A stretch of DNA of 5,182 nt from Nitrososphaerota archaeon (GTDB lineage: Archaea; Thermoproteota; Nitrososphaeria; Nitrososphaerales; UBA57). Shown here piece after piece: positions 1 through 5,182 of the stretch. A program made the translations under genes and the position numbers. Numbering within the stretch: position 1 is the stretch's first letter; every line of letters starts with the position of its first letter. The stretch covers positions 1-5,182 of the forward strand of contig JACAFS010000060.1 of NCBI GenBank assembly GCA_013378385.1, read 5' to 3'. The notes beneath the pieces are model-generated. The model ran no database searches, had not been told where the DNA came from, and saw only the letters and a list, made by a program, of their open reading frames with translations.

Positions 1-22
1 AAAATATAATTTTCAAGAATCC

Positions 23-94
23 GAAAAATTTTCAAAAATTGAAAAATTTTCAAAAATCGAAAAATTTTCAAAAATTGAAAAATTTTCAAAAAAA
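23..94. repeat. Tandem array of four 18-bp A/T-rich units GAAAAATTTTCAAAAATY, each carrying the 11-bp palindrome GAAAA-A-TTTTC. A degenerate extra copy lies at about 4-22, and the array may continue beyond the window start.
   Basis: Units at 23-40, 41-58, 59-76 and 77-94 are identical except for the last 1-2 bases (TT / TC / TT / AA). Positions 4-21 match the unit at about 14 of 18. A5 tracts start at 24, 34, 42, 52, 60, 70, 78 and 88, so spacing alternates 10 and 8 bp. The array lies 90 bp upstream of the mdh ATG. Confidence 0.9.
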
Positions 95-183: not shown

Positions 184-1095
184 ATGATTTCAATAATAGG
201 TGCAGGAAATGTAGGAAGCACTGCCGCATTACAAATATTAAGTCACAATCTAGATGATGTAACATTAATAGATATTGCAGAAGGAAAGGCCGAAGGAGAA
301 GCAATGGACTTTTCACAAATGGCATGTGAGATGGGAATTGATAGAAAAATTTTAGGAACTAACGATTTTAGTAAATTAGAAGGATCCGATATAATAATTG
401 TTCCAGCAGGCATGGGAAGAAAACCTGGAGAGACACGTATGGATCTTCTTCATAAGAACATGAGTATTGTAAAATCAGTAGGCGAGAATATTAAAAAATA
501 TTCGCCAGAGTCCATTGTATTGATGATAACAAATCCGCTTGATGCAATGACATATGTTATGTATAAAATATTAGGTGTTAATAGAGAAAAAGTATTTGGA
601 ATGTCAGGTGCATTAGATAATTTAAGATTTAAGAATGTACTTTCAAGTAAATTAAATGTGTCAAGAAAATCAATAACTACATTAGTAATTGGAGAACACG
701 GAGAAGGAATGCTCCCACTTGCTAGATATTCAACAATTAACGGCATACCTTTGAATAAATTTGCCAGCGAGGAGATTTTGAATGAATGTTATGCAGATAC
801 TATTGGTGCAGCTGCAAAAATTATTGGGTTAAAAGGCGCAACATTTTATGCGCCATCTATGGGAATATATTCAATGGTAGAAGCAATAAAATTAGATAAA
901 AGAATTCTCATGCCTGCATCCACTTTCTTAAAAGGAGAATATGGACAAGAAGGAATATGCATAGGAGTTCCAGTAATATTGGGCAGCAATGGAATTGAGA
1001 AGATAATTGAACTTGATCTAAATCAAAAAGAATCAGAACAGTTCAATAAAGGCGTTCAAAACTTAAAAAATGCTGTAAAAGAAACTAATTTGTAA
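184..1095 (+). CDS. mdh: Malate dehydrogenase, LDH-like (archaeal/tetrameric type), 303 aa
   Basis: ATG at 184 and tandem stops TAA TAA at 1093-1098. Motifs seen: Rossmann motif IIGAGNVGS; LIDI..GKAEGEAMD; the loop AGMGRKPGETRMDLL with Arg at the substrate-discriminating position (Arg for oxaloacetate/malate, Gln for pyruvate/lactate in this family); ITNPLD; and the catalytic His in IGEHGE. Confidence 0.9.
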   Translation: MISIIGAGNVGSTAALQILSHNLDDVTLIDIAEGKAEGEAMDFSQMACEMGIDRKILGTNDFSKLEGSDIIIVPAGMGRKPGETRMDLLHKNMSIVKSVGENIKKYSPESIVLMITNPLDAMTYVMYKILGVNREKVFGMSGALDNLRFKNVLSSKLNVSRKSITTLVIGEHGEGMLPLARYSTINGIPLNKFASEEILNECYADTIGAAAKIIGLKGATFYAPSMGIYSMVEAIKLDKRILMPASTFLKGEYGQEGICIGVPVILGSNGIEKIIELDLNQKESEQFNKGVQNLKNAVKETNL

Positions 1096-1246
1096 TAATT
1101 TTACTGCAAGAATCATGTTTTGATTTATGAATAAAGCAGTATATCGTTGAACAAGATTTACATTTAAAGTAATATTCTTTGTTTAGATGTTTACCGCAAT
1201 AATTGCAAATTATTGAATCTAAATCAGTTTGTATCGAACTAATCAT
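1085..1246 (-). CDS. Small (53 aa) cysteine/histidine-rich protein, AN1/HIT-like cross-brace two-zinc finger. Not present in the supplied ORF track.
   Basis: Minus-strand ATG at 1246-1244 and TAG at 1087-1085. There is an in-frame stop upstream at 1291-1289 with no ATG/GTG/TTG in between. Translation: MISSIQTDLDSIICNYCGKHLNKEYYFKCKSCSTIYCFIHKSKHDSCSKIITN. Ligand spacing is C-x2-C-x11-C-x2-C-x4-C-x2-H-x3-H-x2-C. The first six ligands fit the AN1 pattern C-x2-C-x(9-12)-C-x(1-2)-C-x4-C-x2-H-x5-H-x-C. TAATAACTATTTT (minus strand, 1280-1268) lies 22-34 nt upstream of the ATG. T4 and T6 runs follow the stop (A-runs at 1077-1080 and 1065-1070 on the + strand). The ORF overlaps the mdh 3' end by 11 nt, convergently. 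Confidence 0.6.
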   Translation of the reverse strand: MISSIQTDLDSIICNYCGKHLNKEYYFKCKSCSTIYCFIHKSKHDSCSKIITN

Positions 1247-1318: not shown

Positions 1319-1897
1319 TTATAGTGAAATTACCTCATCTACTGTGAGTGATAAACGATCAATCAAACGTCTTTCTCTTCTTGATATTCCAGTATTATAA
1401 TCTGAATAAGGAAATTTTGCTCTGAAACAAGTGCCAATAAATGTTGAAGATTTAGAAATAGATTCCATTAGCCAGTGTATAGTTCCCATATGAAGATAAA
1501 AATTTAATTCATTAATGAATAGAAGTCTAGTGGGTCTTTTTCTAAATTTATCTAAACATTCGATGAGGGCACGCGAATTTTGAACAGATAACTGTATTGC
1601 GTCTTTAGGATTATTGGCATATATACGTGGCCAATGAACTACTTCAGGTTTTATATAATTAAAATCACTGATATTATCTATATATTCTGATAATTGCGCT
1701 GCAAATTTAATATTTTTGAATGATGTTTTATCAGGGCACATTTCAATAATAGAAATTCTACTATCATAGTCATTATTGATTGCGTCTTTAATCAAATCAG
1801 CTAGAAAGGCATTTCTGTTAACAGAAATATCACTATCTATACCACCAACAATCAATGTGTTTTTACCAGAATAATAATCAAATGTTTTTTTATTCAA
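1319..1897 (-). CDS. Hypothetical protein, 192 aa. Possible RecA/KaiC-like alpha/beta fold with a degenerate (non-functional) P-loop.
   Basis: Long ORF in an AT-rich context. The start codon called by the track is TTG (1897-1895), two codons after the in-frame stop at 1909-1907, and there is no ATG before Met53. GKNTLIVGGIDSDISVN occupies the place of the strand-then-GxxGxGK[ST] Walker A of RecA/KaiC-like proteins, but the Gly-Lys-Ser/Thr residues are missing. TRLLFINELNFYL resembles a Walker B strand (hhhhD/E). The C-terminal end ...LSLTVDEVISL resembles the family's terminal strand. No family is recognised with certainty. Confidence 0.65.
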   Translation of the reverse strand: MNKKTFDYYSGKNTLIVGGIDSDISVNRNAFLADLIKDAINNDYDSRISIIEMCPDKTSFKNIKFAAQLSEYIDNISDFNYIKPEVVHWPRIYANNPKDAIQLSVQNSRALIECLDKFRKRPTRLLFINELNFYLHMGTIHWLMESISKSSTFIGTCFRAKFPYSDYNTGISRRERRLIDRLSLTVDEVISL

Positions 1898-1933: not shown

Positions 1934-2179
1934 ATGTGGACATTGCTAGCGGTCTATGGAATTGTAACAATCCTTTCAGGCATATTTCTATTGGCAATAA
2001 CTGGAGTTTTTGGAATGGTAATTGGATTAATTGGAGTAATTATGTTAGTGCTTTCAGTATTTCTATCAGCTCCTAAATCTGAACAACCTGATGATCAATC
2101 TAAGAAATATTGTACATATTGCATAGCAGAGATTAACAAAACAGATATTACGTGTCCTATATGTCAGACCGAACAATGA
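1934..2179 (+). CDS. Small membrane protein, 81 aa: two N-terminal TM helices plus a C-terminal CxxC...CxxC zinc ribbon
   Basis: ATG at 1934 and TGA at 2177-2179. Residues 3-46 are two Gly-rich hydrophobic stretches (LLAVYGIVTILSGIFLLAITGVFGMVIGLIGVIMLVLSVFLSA). An acidic linker PKSEQPDDQSKK follows, then C60-x2-C63-x10-C74-x2-C77 (nt 2111-2164). Confidence 0.7.
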   Translation: MWTLLAVYGIVTILSGIFLLAITGVFGMVIGLIGVIMLVLSVFLSAPKSEQPDDQSKKYCTYCIAEINKTDITCPICQTEQ

Positions 2180-2183
2180 CAAA

Positions 2184-3359
2184 TTATTTCAAGATTTGAG
2201 AGATTGCGTCAGTAACAGTGCCTTTTTTAATTCTATCATCATATTCAGATAATATCGTTTCTAGACCAGTTAAGAAACGGCCAACCTCATTAGGACCAAT
2301 ATTAGCCATATGACCGACTCGTAAAGCGTTATTTTTCATTTCGCCGAATCCACTTGCTACTTCTACATTAAAGCGAGATTTTAATTCAGATTGAATATGA
2401 ATAGATTTTCCTGAAGGAACATGGAAACCTGTAACTGTATAAGCTCTATAATTTTCTTCGGCAACAAAATCTAAACCAAGAGATTCAACACCCGCATGAA
2501 TCGCGTTAGCGACATTTTTATGACGATTCCATCGATTTTCTAAACCTTCTTCCATAATCATTTCAAGTGCGGTTTTTAATGCAACCATTACTTGAATAGC
2601 AGGAGTAGCGATGTATGTTTTAGGATTATCCATATGAACCTTCCATTTTTTAAGATTTAGATAATATGAAGGAATAGTTGATTTACGGTTTTCAAGTAAC
2701 TCAATAGCATTTTGTGAGAGCATCATAAGCCCTGCCCCAGGAACTGAACCGATTGCTTTTTGAGATGTAGTTAATACAACGTCTGCTCCAAGCCTGTCAA
2801 AATTCAATTCACAGCCTCCAACACCGCATACAGAATCAACTATTGCAAGAGAATTATTATCTTTAACAACTTTAACTAATTCATAAATATTATTCATAAC
2901 TGTAGAAGAGGTATCAACATGAGTGATGAAAACTGCATCATATTTATTTTTCTTAAGTTCAGTTTGTAGAATATCAGGATCTGCATGGCTGCCAAAATTA
3001 AAAGACAAAGTATTTGAATCAATACTGTAACAATCAAGCATTTGACCAAAACGTTGTGCGAAATATCCAGTATCTACAATAAGACCTGTATTATTTTGTT
3101 CTAATAAACTTAAAACAGTCGCTTCCATAGCAATTGTTCCAGAACCGGTAATTACGAAAGGCGAACCGGTATCAGTCCCGAATAATTTTTTTGATAAAAC
3201 AAGTAATTTATTAAAGTCGTCGGTAAATTCTTCGCTCAAATGTCCCATTTGGTTGTTACTCATAACATTTCTTACTCTTGAATCCACTACAGTAGGTCCA
3301 GGAACCATTAGAAATGAATCATATGGATCGCGATTATCTTCTTTAGACACGTTATTCAC
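2184..3359 (-). CDS. Class V PLP-dependent aminotransferase (alanine/serine-glyoxylate or serine-pyruvate aminotransferase family), 391 aa
   Basis: Motifs seen: N-terminal LMVPGPT; GSGTIAMEA; FITHVDTSS; IVDSVCGVGG; and the PLP-binding Lys in TTSQKAIGSVPG (Lys201, nt 2757-2759). The start called by the track is GTG (3359-3357), one codon after the in-frame stop at 3365-3363. The next start is ATG Met18 at 3308, directly in front of VPGP. Confidence 0.9.
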   Translation of the reverse strand: MNNVSKEDNRDPYDSFLMVPGPTVVDSRVRNVMSNNQMGHLSEEFTDDFNKLLVLSKKLFGTDTGSPFVITGSGTIAMEATVLSLLEQNNTGLIVDTGYFAQRFGQMLDCYSIDSNTLSFNFGSHADPDILQTELKKNKYDAVFITHVDTSSTVMNNIYELVKVVKDNNSLAIVDSVCGVGGCELNFDRLGADVVLTTSQKAIGSVPGAGLMMLSQNAIELLENRKSTIPSYYLNLKKWKVHMDNPKTYIATPAIQVMVALKTALEMIMEEGLENRWNRHKNVANAIHAGVESLGLDFVAEENYRAYTVTGFHVPSGKSIHIQSELKSRFNVEVASGFGEMKNNALRVGHMANIGPNEVGRFLTGLETILSEYDDRIKKGTVTDAISQILK

Positions 3360-3500: not shown

Positions 3501-4163
3501 TTATAAGTTCATATTTTCTTTAACCTGAATTACTCTATTAGCAATATTCAATATACGTTCATCATGAGTAGTAATAAATACAGTTTTTTGATTCATAATT
3601 GAATCTCCTCGAATTAATGACAAAATCATCTCAGAGATTATCGGATCTAAGCCTTCAGTTGGCTCGTCCATTAATAATATCGGAGGGTCATTAACCATAC
3701 TACGTGCGATGGATACAATCTCAGATTCTCCAACACTTAATGTACCGGCTAATCGATCACTAAGAGAAATAAGACCAAGTTTATCTAAAGTTTGATCAAC
3801 AATTGATTGTCGTTTGTTTTTATCAATACCGCTGAACATTAATGGAAGTTCTAAATTTTGTGATATTGATAATTCAGGAACTAGATTTGATTTCTGAGGT
3901 ACTATACCAAATATTTTTGCGCGCAATGTAGATAATTTATCTGGTGAAAGCTTAGTAATATCATACTTATCAATATAGATTCTTCCAGAATCAGGCTTCA
4001 TAATTCCACATATTAAATTAAGTAATGTTGTTTTACCCGAACCAATAGTTCCTTTGGCAGCAATAATTTCACCTGATTGAATTTCTAGATTTACGTTTGA
4101 AAAAATGGTATTATTTTCATAACTCATTGTGATATCCAATAATTTTATTATCGGAATTTGCAT
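3501..4163 (-). CDS. ABC transporter ATP-binding protein, MJ0796/LolD/FtsE/MacB-type, 220 aa
   Basis: ATG at 4163-4161. Motifs seen: Walker A GTIGSGKTT (residues 38-46); Q-loop GIVPQ; signature LSVGESEIVSIARSM (a divergent form of LSGGQ/EQQRVAIARAL); Walker B ILLMDEPT; D-loop EGLD; and H-switch FITTHD. It starts 6 nt after the permease stop codon. Confidence 0.9.
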   Translation of the reverse strand: MQIPIIKLLDITMSYENNTIFSNVNLEIQSGEIIAAKGTIGSGKTTLLNLICGIMKPDSGRIYIDKYDITKLSPDKLSTLRAKIFGIVPQKSNLVPELSISQNLELPLMFSGIDKNKRQSIVDQTLDKLGLISLSDRLAGTLSVGESEIVSIARSMVNDPPILLMDEPTEGLDPIISEMILSLIRGDSIMNQKTVFITTHDERILNIANRVIQVKENMNL

Positions 4164-4169
4164 AGATAA

Positions 4170-4694
4170 TCACTGATATAAATTATTTTGTTTGAATGAT
4201 TGAATAATTGCAGCATATGAACCAATACATATGCCAATAATTGTCAAAATTGAAATATATAATATAGAATTTTGTAATATATTTGGAATAACATTTAGTG
4301 GAAGCTGTAAAGTATATACAACACTTGAGCCAATAATTATACCACAAAATAATCCAATTAAACCAACTATTATGAATCTAGATATTATAATAGAAATTAC
4401 CGAACGAGTCTGTGCTCCAAGTTGATTAAATAACATCAATTTACTTTTTGATGATTCAATAGTTTGCTTTGTAAGTAGATATTCTGAAACAAATACAAAA
4501 CAGAAAGTAATTACACTAGTAAATATAATTCCAGGACCAGTTAACAGACTAGATAATATTATTGCATTAATAGTAGTCATAGCAATTATTAATATTGCAA
4601 GTCTGGATTGGGCTTTACCCATTGTTAATCCAGTAGTAATTAATTCTAATACCAAATTATTACCAGCTAGAATTATTCGAAAGATATTTTCCAA
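4170..4694 (-). CDS. FtsX-like ABC permease, minimal 4-TM form without an extracytoplasmic domain, 174 aa (150 aa if the ATG at 4622 is used)
   Basis: GKAQSRLAILIIAMTTINAIILSSLLTG resembles TM1 of MacB/LolC/FtsX permeases (K.RS.L..LGI.IG.A.VI...SLG.G). It runs directly into an FtsX-domain-like region: ITFCFVFVSEYLLTKQTIESSKSKLMLFNQLGAQTRSVISIIISRFIIVGLIGLFCGIIIG, comparable to ...R.REIGILKALGA.R..I......E.....G..G...G. One more TM helix follows (ILYISILTIIGICIGSYAAII). The start called by the track is TTG (4694-4692), and the first ATG is Met25 at 4622-4620. Confidence 0.75.
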   Translation of the reverse strand: MENIFRIILAGNNLVLELITTGLTMGKAQSRLAILIIAMTTINAIILSSLLTGPGIIFTSVITFCFVFVSEYLLTKQTIESSKSKLMLFNQLGAQTRSVISIIISRFIIVGLIGLFCGIIIGSSVVYTLQLPLNVIPNILQNSILYISILTIIGICIGSYAAIIQSFKQNNLYQ

Positions 4695-5182
4695 CCGTTA
4701 TCAGTACGTTCAGATTTAGGCATTGGTTTATGTTCTTTATTTGTATCAGGTTTATTATCAGGAATTGATCCATCTTCCATAGGACTTAGATCAGGATGTT
4801 TATTTGCAAAATCTGTAATTTTTGAAATAAATGAATCAGTAGAATCATTATTCTCAGGTTCCTCAAATAATTTAAAATCAGTGTGTTTATCATCATTTGA
4901 TGTTTCTATTTCACTTGCAGCGGCATGAGGACGTTCAGTAATAATAAATGGATGTGATTCAGGTTCAAATTCTGGATCAATAGGTACGATAGTAGGATGA
5001 ATTTCTTTATCTTCTGTAATAGTGTCAGGACCGTCTTCAATTATTTTATTCTGATTCATAAGTAATCCTGAATCAGGATTATAATCTGGTTCTACAATTG
5101 GTTCTGGTTCTACAATTGGTTCTGGTTCTACAATTGGTTCTGGTTCTACAATTGGTTCTGGTTCTACAATTGGTTCTGGTTC
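4673..5182 (-). CDS. Acidic Glu/Asp/Pro-rich low-complexity protein with N-proximal perfect (EPEPIV)n repeats. 5'-partial, since the ORF is open to the window edge.
   Basis: The track ORF starts at ATG 5059, but the same frame stays open for all 41 codons up to 5182. That stretch reads EP(EPIVEP)x5-DYNPDSGLL-MNQNK... The unique part contains a degenerate echo of the repeat (HPTIVPIDPEFEPESHP), which argues that the repeat is translated. Stop TAA at 4675-4673. There is no recognisable catalytic motif. Confidence 0.6.
   Translation of the reverse strand, partial: EPEPIVEPEPIVEPEPIVEPEPIVEPEPIVEPDYNPDSGLLMNQNKIIEDGPDTITEDKEIHPTIVPIDPEFEPESHPFIITERPHAAASEIETSNDDKHTDFKLFEEPENNDSTDSFISKITDFANKHPDLSPMEDGSIPDNKPDTNKEHKPMPKSERTDNGWKISFE
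5063..5081. repeat. Perfect inverted repeat TAATCCTG-AAT-CAGGATTA (8-bp arms, 3-nt centre), 3 nt upstream of the internal ATG at 5059 and at the junction of the repeat array with unique sequence
   Basis: Arms at 5063-5070 and 5074-5081 are exact reverse complements. The repeat lies in-frame within the open reading frame, encoding YNPDSGL. Confidence 0.8.
5087..5182. repeat. Perfect 18-bp tandem repeat TGGTTCTACAATTGGTTC, 5.3 copies, truncated by the window end
   Basis: Units at 5087-5104, 5105-5122, 5123-5140, 5141-5158 and 5159-5176, plus a partial unit at 5177-5182, with no mismatch. The internal substructure is TGGTTC / TACAAT / TGGTTC. The minus-strand translation is EPIVEP per unit. Confidence 0.95.

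Follow-up and report, generated by a model that had tools for sequence, protein, structure and literature searches.

Background

Cell division based on the Cdv/ESCRT system is poorly understood in Thaumarchaeota. CdvA is a division protein of the cytoplasm that associates with the membrane (PMC5840170, PMC8970359). In Thaumarchaeota it has a putative MIM2 motif in place of the CdvB-binding E3B/BWI peptide of Crenarchaeota, and its gene lies away from cdvB and cdvC (PMC8970359). With no CdvB-recruiting peptide and with cdvA apart from cdvB and cdvC, a link that joins CdvA to the membrane and to the other division proteins is missing, and a pair consisting of an ATPase and a membrane protein encoded directly after cdvA readily suggests itself as a candidate.

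The closest described relatives of such a pair are the type VII (mechanotransmission) ABC systems. In MacB, LolCDE, HrtBA and YtrEF, a Porter/Sabre domain or another extracytoplasmic domain inserted between the first two transmembrane (TM) helices of the permease does the work, and in bacterial FtsEX the extracytoplasmic domain of FtsX binds EnvC, PcsB, RipC or CwlO.

Here we describe a 5,182-nt stretch of a Nitrososphaerota contig (JACAFS010000060.1; hereafter the window). One region of it covers the 3' end of a gene cluster that is conserved in Thaumarchaeota (Nitrososphaerota): cdvA, then a small FtsX-like permease gene, then the gene of an FtsE/LolD-like ATPase. The cluster suggests that the archaeal ESCRT-type division machinery has, in the two ABC proteins, an FtsEX-like partner so far unrecognised. 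In the literature we found no report of a link between CdvA and an ABC module, although an unremarked listing in an earlier review or survey is possible, and no description of a type VII permease with nothing outside the membrane.

Genes of the cluster in the window

The coordinates of the features are given in Table 1. By sequence, the acidic ORF that runs to the edge of the window encodes the C-terminal tail of the archaeal cell-division protein CdvA, since its 169 residues align throughout, with 83% identity, with residues 241-415 of a complete CdvA (locus L029) carrying the CdvA domain PF18822. This domain scores 65.6 bits in L029, 68.9 in L031 and 68.6 in L004 (cut-off 30), and is found in L001 too. 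The PRC-barrel N-terminal domain and the coiled coil of the window's own cdvA lie beyond the window edge, and PF18822 was matched in orthologues with C-termini similar to the window ORF. The tail is acidic and rich in Pro and Glu (26% D+E, 15% Pro) and carries the (EPEPIV)n repeat, as noted in the original prediction.

Table 1. Features of the cdvA-permease-ATPase region of the window
Feature	Positions	Strand	Evidence
ABC ATPase, MacB-NBD/LolD/FtsE/MJ0796 clade, 220 aa	3501..4163	-	Pfam, NCBIfam and PDB matches
Mini FtsX-like permease, probably 161 aa with a TTG start at 4655	4170..4655	-	Homologue conservation, profiles, AlphaFold
cdvA, 3' part: C-terminal 169 codons and stop, open to the window edge	4673..5182	-	
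(EPEPIV)n repeat DNA, perfect 18-nt tandem, 5.4 copies, truncated at the window edge	5085..5182	-	
Clade-specific CdvA C-terminal motif SFISKITDFANKHPDLSPMEDGS...PKSERTDNGWKISFE	4676..4834	-	Conserved in L004, L029, L031 and L001

The permease ORF at its longest (4170-4694) encodes 174 aa from a TTG at 4694, or 150 aa from an ATG at 4622, and ends 6 nt upstream of the ATG of the ATPase gene; these coordinates agree with the size and spacing first predicted. Homologues keep about 12 residues upstream of the ATG and do not keep residues 1-13 of the 174-aa form; therefore, the likely start is the TTG at 4655, 17 nt past the cdvA stop. The 22-nt overlap with the acidic ORF that was also predicted holds with the TTG at 4694 only and disappears with the likely start.

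The ATPase, originally described as similar to MJ0796 and LolD, matches Pfam ABC_tran (1.2e-31). Its best NCBIfam models are FtsE, LolD and MacB, and its best PDB matches are 5xu1, MJ0796 (1.4e-35), MacB, YtrE and FtsE, in keeping with that description. An exact look-up of its sequence gave no recorded match. The motifs are GTIGSGKTT (Walker A), VPQ (Q-loop), LSVGE (signature), LLMDE (Walker B) and TTHD (H-loop). Walker A, the Q-loop, the D-E of Walker B and the H-loop are invariant in all 43 unique members of the family, the Val of the signature being kept in 43/43 as well. Judged from these motifs, the ATPase is catalytically intact.

Conservation of the cluster

Neighbourhoods of thaumarchaeal cdvA were collected by a cdvA-seeded metagenome scan of the best-scoring 80 CdvA relatives, many of them from a few soil and peat projects. 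The permease follows cdvA in 47/47 loci having enough downstream sequence, a count that overstates independent sampling, the permeases forming 25 clusters below 70% identity; the permease and the ATPase both follow cdvA in 32/32 loci. Look-ups seeded with cdvA also found the trio in all cases, and distant homologues retrieved with the permease as the seed all adjoin cdvA. An exhaustive HMMER search with a narrow permease profile gave 12 clusters, of which every one examined is linked to cdvA; with so narrow a profile, this count is no measure of the reach of the family beyond Nitrososphaerota. A search of genome contigs with a profile of the close permease family found five MAG loci, all of which end inside the cdvA repeat and provide no upstream context.

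The distance between cdvA and the permease gene is 13-96 nt (median 62); the gap from there to the ATPase gene is far shorter (median 2 nt), and in many loci the two ABC genes overlap by 13 nt. The GC content of the trio loci ranges from 27 to 66%, the trio is kept at CdvA identities down to about 36%, and the flanking genes represent at least six contexts (UbiA/aminotransferase; V-ATPase; TiaS; zf-AN1/BNR; LUD/DCC1; Hef/M17/GcvP). In other words, the three genes stay together as neighbours while the surrounding genes change. Among the outcomes that the original prediction had named as speaking against it, neither an unconserved trio nor a permease family with no FtsX match was found.

An unlikely but by no means negligible alternative is that the two ABC proteins work as an ordinary small exporter, or as an extractor of lipids or hydrophobic compounds resembling HrtBA or the antimicrobial-peptide exporters, that they have no role in division, and that their adjacency to cdvA is inherited synteny. 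Although some of the neighbouring genes in the marine loci (UbiA ... aminotransferase ... mdh) are syntenic too, inherited synteny fits poorly with a trio that persists over this range of CdvA identity and GC content and through at least six replacements of both flanks, with the linkage to cdvA in all of the 47 and 32 loci, or with the dozen HMMER clusters, each one examined being cdvA-linked. An exporter function agrees with the placement of the ATPase in the clade of the MacB, HrtA, YtrE and BceA exporters, with HrtB being among the best structural matches of the permease, and with the one source annotation, which names a homologue "transport permease" (P0040); however, the substrate-handling extracytoplasmic domain of the known type VII systems is absent here, as described in the next section. 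The pair may also transport or flip a substrate embedded in the membrane.

Fold of the permease

The permease starts with a short, conserved amphipathic helix of the ARSLK type, which is followed by four TM helices; TM1 and TM2 are joined by a 5-residue loop, TM2 and TM3 by a coupling helix (..LFNQLGAQTRS..), and TM3 and TM4 by a short loop. The helices of the AlphaFold model span residues 14-37, 41-68, 83-116 and 123-156. The mean number of K+R residues is 2.8 at the N-terminus, 3.4 in the TM2-3 loop and 1.0 at the C-terminus, as compared with 0.04 in the TM1-2 loop and 0.16 in the TM3-4 loop; on the basis of this distribution, the four TM helices are predicted to have an N-in/C-in topology. 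The TM1-TM2 loop has exactly 5 residues in 25/25 permease representatives, which leaves the protein without an extracytoplasmic domain, and Pfam matched neither MacB_PCD nor any other extra domain in the window protein and 25 diverse relatives. Thus, the family has no large domain between TM1 and TM2 as in other type VII permeases, and the partner-binding domain of FtsX is likewise absent.

Assignment to the FtsX fold holds at the level of the family, FtsX (PF02687) being matched in 13/17 close and 19/25 diverse relatives (best 3.9e-6) as the sole Pfam family that recurs across the members, whereas the window permease alone scores 21.6-22 bits, under the cut-off of 25.5. A broad profile of the family matches LolE (9e-6), LolF (1.6e-5) and MacB (3e-3) in the PDB, and also HrtB, YtrF and FtsX, the last weakly (E=0.74). 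These PDB matches are exclusively type VII permeases and fall on the stretch from TM2 through the coupling helix to TM3, where the LxxLGA motifs align; a narrow profile gives E ~0.5 only.

AlphaFold models were built from 17 close sequences (pLDDT 57) and from 23 more diverse sequences (pLDDT 76.8). With the latter model, the top 13 Foldseek matches are all type VII permeases, with probabilities of ~1 and weak E-values (0.015-0.4), and the model superposes on the TM bundle of FtsX with a TM-score of 0.68-0.70 (8x61) and a TMq of 0.74 (8tzj). Both models retrieve FtsX, HrtB and LolC/E first. We conclude that, as originally predicted, the permease belongs to the type VII ABC proteins of the FtsX/MacB fold, has four helices and no extracytoplasmic domain, and is encoded next to a partner NBD of the MacB/LolD/FtsE clade.

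We consider it very improbable that the small membrane protein is instead a generic glycine-rich four-helix protein and the ATPase an orphan or otherwise paired. The subthreshold Pfam score, the NCBIfam result for the window permease (LolC/E at E ~0.5 only) and the poor first model would fit such a protein; the recurrence of FtsX alone among Pfam families, the confinement of the profile matches to the type VII core, the agreement of both models and the overlap of the permease and ATPase genes in many loci would not.

The repeat tail of CdvA

Both the EP repeats and the long CdvA tail are confined to one marine clade, in which the tail has 120-194 aa; in most CdvA lineages it has 14-40 aa, and the permease is still domain-less. 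The repeat unit varies in length and sequence between close relatives, short-read assemblies are interrupted in this linker, and the SFISKITDFANKHPDLSPMEDGS...PKSERTDNGWKISFE motif is absent from the CdvA lineages outside the marine clade. In CdvA of this one clade, the EP repeats make up a disordered linker that evolves fast and is no part of the ABC mechanism.

The CdvA homologues contain no signal peptide, TM helix or other hydrophobic segment, the maximal 19-residue Kyte-Doolittle mean being at most 0.78 as compared with 2.60 in the permease. The proposal of the original prediction that the acidic EP-repeat protein, which is encoded by an adjacent and conserved gene and is Pro-rich and probably extended, supplies the missing extracytoplasmic domain of the permease in trans, or once supplied it in cis, has next to no chance of being right, because this protein is the cytoplasmic CdvA (PMC5840170), without signal peptide or TM helix, and because the permease is domain-less in all lineages, including those with short tails.

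The EP pattern (xPxP-phi-phi) resembles the MIM2 motif, phi-P-x-phi-P-x-x-P-phi-P, only loosely, and to regard the repeat as a multiplied MIM2 (Vps4/CdvC-binding) motif is speculation. Beside the repeats, the HPDLSPMEDGSIP stretch of CdvA may be another putative MIM2 candidate.

Possible role of the ABC pair

Our best reading is that the two ABC proteins would serve CdvA, to which gene order links them, as an ATP-driven partner or regulator in the membrane. The two proteins would form a (permease)2(ATPase)2 complex. Since such a complex would have nothing outside the membrane, outward mechanotransmission of the kind used by bacterial FtsEX, MacB and LolCDE should be impossible. Its output would lie on the membrane or cytoplasmic side and would consist of ATP-driven dimerisation of the NBDs and movements of the TM and coupling helices. 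By these means the complex could anchor, position or switch the CdvA assembly at the division site; the functional analogue would be the cytoplasmic side of bacterial FtsEX (FtsE-FtsZ and FtsX-FtsA).

On balance, we lean towards a conserved cluster whose ABC complex anchors, positions or switches the CdvA assembly, gene order providing the link to CdvA. More tentatively, the mini-FtsX/FtsE-like pair could be a core component of the thaumarchaeal Cdv divisome that uses ATP to anchor or switch CdvA polymers at the division site. The lack of the E3B/BWI peptide in thaumarchaeal CdvA may be relevant to the role of the pair. If the pair is such a core component, a relative of bacterial FtsEX has lost its outside domain and become coupled to ESCRT-type machinery, which could explain how CdvA without a CdvB-binding peptide is attached to the membrane and regulated, and which would be a notable parallel between FtsZ-based division in bacteria and ESCRT-based division in archaea.

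Comparison with known systems

MacB, LolCDE, HrtBA and YtrEF provide the best sequence matches of both the ATPase (5xu1, MJ0796, MacB, YtrE) and the permease (LolE, LolF, MacB, HrtB, YtrF). In contrast to these systems, all 25 representatives of the permease described here lack the domain that does the work between TM1 and TM2, and the size of the permease is 150-175 aa as against about 290-650 aa.

As in bacterial FtsEX, a four-TM permease of the FtsX fold is encoded together with an FtsE-like NBD, the predicted TM bundle superposes on that of FtsX, the gene pair is linked to a gene for cell division, and no transported substrate is apparent. Unlike in bacterial FtsEX, the loop of the mini-permease has 5 aa in place of the ~100-aa EnvC/PcsB-binding domain of FtsX; the window ATPase is far under the cut-off of the FtsE equivalog TIGR02673 (152.8 vs 264.85 bits) and has the signature LSVGE, not LSGGE/Q; and the division gene beside the pair is cdvA, which belongs to the ESCRT-type Cdv system, and not the gene of FtsZ or FtsA, in a host without peptidoglycan.

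CdvA itself, as read in the orthologues, resembles that of Crenarchaeota and Thaumarchaeota in having a PRC-barrel and the PF18822 coiled coil followed by a Pro-rich tail (PMC8970359). Whereas crenarchaeal cdvA belongs to a cdvABC operon and encodes a CdvB-binding peptide at its end, the sampled thaumarchaeal cdvA is followed by the ABC pair, and the marine clade represented here differs from other CdvA lineages in a tail that has grown to 120-194 aa, contains hypervariable EP repeats and has a C-terminal motif of its own.

Gene layout

Three minus-strand ORFs occupy 3501-5182, and ORF, Pfam and repeat checks found their original description accurate. The window as a whole is AT-rich (G+C ~30%).

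Features of the window, in window coordinates
Feature	Position	Strand	Remarks
AT-rich tandem repeat	8-92		period 18/36 nt (AATTTTCAAAAATCGAAA), ~4.7 copies, 92-95% matches
Malate/lactate dehydrogenase gene	184-1095	+	ordinary housekeeping gene
Zinc-ribbon protein	1085-1246	-	53 aa, double CxxC; small/unannotated ORF
192-aa protein	1319-1897	-	no Pfam match; small/unannotated ORF
81-aa protein	1934-2179	+	hydrophobic N-terminal half, C-terminal CxxC...CxxC; small/unannotated ORF
Class-V aminotransferase gene	2184-3359	-	ordinary housekeeping gene
ABC ATPase	3501-4163	-	220 aa ORF
ATPase signature LSVGE	3733-3747	-	
Small hydrophobic permease ORF	4170-4694	-	174 aa from TTG, or 150 aa from ATG 4622
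3' part of cdvA (acidic ORF)	stop 4673-4675, open to window edge	-	169 C-terminal codons and the stop
Marine CdvA C-terminal motif	4676-4834	-	
EP repeat	5085-5182	-	18-nt tandem unit, 100% matches

The permease ORF lies upstream of the ATPase ORF and ends 6 nt from it. Residues 1-13 of its 174-aa form (TTG-4694) show no conservation among homologues; about 12 residues before the internal Met (..LxELITxGLTM..) are conserved, and the Met position itself is Ile or Leu in distant members. The start is likely to be the TTG at 4655, which gives 161 aa, the called length of several relatives. Since this codon sits 17 nt past the upstream stop, the 22-nt overlap with the acidic ORF that had been described is probably not real.

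The aminotransferase and dehydrogenase genes are syntenic with the cdvA cluster only in marine lineages (related loci L001, L004-L007 and L104), and the 192-aa and 81/82-aa genes are conserved in both place and size at the syntenic marine loci L001 and L004-L007. The repeat at 8-92 lies ~90 nt upstream of the dehydrogenase gene and could be a regulatory or promoter-region repeat.

Identification of the acidic ORF as CdvA

Syntenic contigs reached through permease homologues run beyond the window edge. At L004, the gene upstream of the permease encodes a 320-aa protein that matches PF18822, the CdvA coiled-coil family (68.6 bits; cut-off 30) and shares the C-terminal tail ...ITKITEFANNHPDLSPIEDNS...PKSEKTETGWKISFE with the window ORF. 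The nearest complete relative, at L029, shares 83% identity with the window ORF across all 169 residues and matches PF18822 at 65.6 bits. These relatives begin with a PRC-barrel-like MHAQALxKLVKKPVKDTYGR... domain. Judged from these alignments, the acidic ORF (26% Asp+Glu, 15% Pro) is CdvA, the protein that initiates Cdv/ESCRT division, which is found only in archaea and is cytoplasmic and membrane-associated (PMC5840170). A 19-residue Kyte-Doolittle scan of the CdvA relatives found no hydrophobic stretch (maximum mean at most 0.78, versus 2.60 for the permease). The original prediction was that the acidic repeat protein supplies in trans the extracytoplasmic part that the permease lacks; this is contradicted, because a cytoplasmic protein without a hydrophobic stretch cannot serve as such a domain.

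Five perfect EPEPIV units open the window ORF. The corresponding unit is EPEPIVHA at L029 (24 nt x 6.7, perfect), PEPEPIAV at L031, TPEPTP at L004, QPEPEPMT at L001 and PEQVAV at L028. The repeats are a clade-specific linker of CdvA that changes rapidly; perfect units (18, 24 or other nt) that vary even among close marine relatives indicate that it evolves by very fast slippage. Marine-clade short-read assemblies systematically break or gap within this repeat (window 5085-5182; L008-L012, L024-L030; L001:9540-9700): each of the five GTDB loci begins 400-560 nt upstream of the permease, and in L001 an N-gap occupies the repeat position.

In most other lineages, CdvA has a P/Q-rich tail of only 14-40 aa ending ..QVAQPPVQKAAQATAQ, presumably the "putative MIM2" described for thaumarchaeal CdvA (PMC8970359). 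The marine-clade C-terminus carries a private, well-conserved motif, ITKITDFANKHPDLSP.ED...PKSERT.(N/T)GWKISFE, also found at L004, L029, L031 and L001 and absent from the other thaumarchaeal CdvAs compared. This motif may serve as a peptide that binds CdvC/MIT or the ABC module.

Conservation of the gene trio

Among 1.84 billion representatives, an exhaustive permease-seeded HMMER search recovered only 12 clusters, and all distant permeases with readable context (P0029, P0032, P0035, P0036) lie between a PF18822 cdvA gene and an ABC ATPase gene. With a CdvA profile as an independent seed, gene-context look-ups for four homologues (P0154, P0109, P0054, P0060) gave cdvA, then a 155-161 aa protein without a Pfam match, then ABC_tran; P0154 was also found on a 1.8-Mb contig. 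A CdvA-seeded scan of metagenome contigs yielded 80 loci, which are the best-scoring relatives of the profile, many of them from few projects. The mini-permease is directly downstream of cdvA in 47/47 loci with at least 560 nt downstream, and permease and ATPase are both present in 32/32 with at least 1300 nt, in a sampling that left out named cultured genomes and crenarchaeal loci. These loci span G+C contents of 27% to 66% and CdvA identities down to ~36%, and the sources of the trio sequences are named as Nitrososphaerales, Nitrososphaerota, Thaumarchaeota or Nitrosopumilales MAGs.

What surrounds the trio changes from lineage to lineage: marine lineages have UbiA on the upstream side and aminotransferase V on the downstream side, and elsewhere there are V-type ATPase subunits, TiaS, zf-AN1/M50 and BNR, LUD/DCC1-like, or Hef/M17 and GcvP. 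The three genes are a conserved unit and are closely packed. With start codons chosen heuristically, 13-96 nt separate cdvA from the permease (median 62); between permease and ATPase the median distance is 2 nt, and many of these pairs overlap by 13 nt.

The permease and its ATPase

Database labels for the permease are "hypothetical protein" or none. The window protein alone scores 21.6-22 bits against Pfam FtsX, just below the cut-off of 25.5. Among its relatives, FtsX is the sole recurring Pfam family (13/17 close and 19/25 diverse permeases; best 3.9e-6). A search of PDB sequences with a profile built from 25 representatives (under 70% identity) matched LolE (9e-6), LolF (1.6e-5) and MacB (3e-3), and also HrtB, YtrF and FtsX. 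The matches always cover TM2, coupling helix and TM3, where the L..LGA motif, invariant in the family, lines up with the Lol LRTLGA motif.

An AlphaFold model (23 sequences; pLDDT 76.8, pTM 0.72) begins with a short helix, which is followed by TM1 and TM2, then by a short coupling helix, and last by TM3 and TM4, and the positive-inside distribution predicts an N-in/C-in topology. In a Foldseek search of the PDB, all top 13 matches were type VII permeases, with probabilities of 0.9-1.0 and E-values of only 0.015-0.4: E. coli FtsX TM bundles (8x61_C/D, TM 0.68-0.70 over 160 columns) and V. cholerae FtsX (8tzj_C, TMq 0.74), and next HrtB, LolC/E and YtrF. These matches agree with the predicted FtsX/MacB-type permease and contradict a reading as a non-FtsX four-helix protein. 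All 25 representatives have a TM1-TM2 loop of exactly 5 residues, and the TM3-TM4 loop has 7-17, so that the predicted lack of an extracytoplasmic domain holds. The stripped-down FtsX architecture is real and belongs to the family as a whole rather than reflecting a truncated gene in this genome.

The ATPase matches Pfam ABC_tran at 1.2e-31. Its best NCBIfam models are FtsE, lactococcin-972-type exporter, LolD, MacB and DevA, all far under equivalog cut-offs, and its closest solved structures are S. pneumoniae 5xu1, MJ0796 (1.4e-35), MacB NBDs, YtrE and FtsE, in line with its description as MJ0796/LolD-like. Walker A (GxxGxGKTT), the Q-loop Gln, the Walker B Asp-Glu, the D-loop and the H-loop His are invariant among 43 unique family members; this strong purifying selection at the catalytic residues speaks for a working enzyme. 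The other motifs are canonical, but the signature is LSVGE in 43/43 cdvA-linked ATPases, with invariant Val, versus LSGGE/Q of relatives.

Proposed function

In type VII ABC systems such as MacB, LolCDE and FtsEX, ATP hydrolysed in the cytoplasm drives the movement of an extracytoplasmic domain. The mini-permease family retains the engine (NBD, coupling helix and four-helix bundle) without the outside part, and the host lacks peptidoglycan; the family's work would therefore be confined to the membrane and the cytoplasmic face. In the contexts examined, cdvA is the sole constant partner gene of the ABC pair, and the CdvA protein has to assemble on the membrane at mid-cell. Thaumarchaeal CdvA has no CdvB-binding peptide, and cdvA is not encoded with cdvB or cdvC (PMC8970359). 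From the confined output, the constant partner and the missing peptide, we infer that the permease-ATPase complex may anchor CdvA to the membrane or regulate it, switched by ATP. An exporter or lipid extractor unrelated to division is less likely. Anchoring or regulation of CdvA would mirror the cytoplasmic side of FtsEX in bacteria, with its FtsE-FtsZ and FtsX-FtsA interactions, and candidate contact surfaces are the NBDs and the permease's conserved basic N-terminal helix (..ARSLK.TR..).

Comparison with known systems

Our literature searches, incomplete in coverage, found no paper connecting CdvA with an ABC, FtsE or FtsX-like module, and no description of a type VII permease without an extracytoplasmic domain. 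The module is not an orthologue of FtsEX: it reaches 152.8 bits with the FtsE model, whose cut-off is 264.85, and there is no extracytoplasmic domain. By sequence and model, it is a structural member of the type VII ABC superfamily and would work like one, although the superfamily's hallmark, the extracytoplasmic domain, is missing from the mini-permease family.
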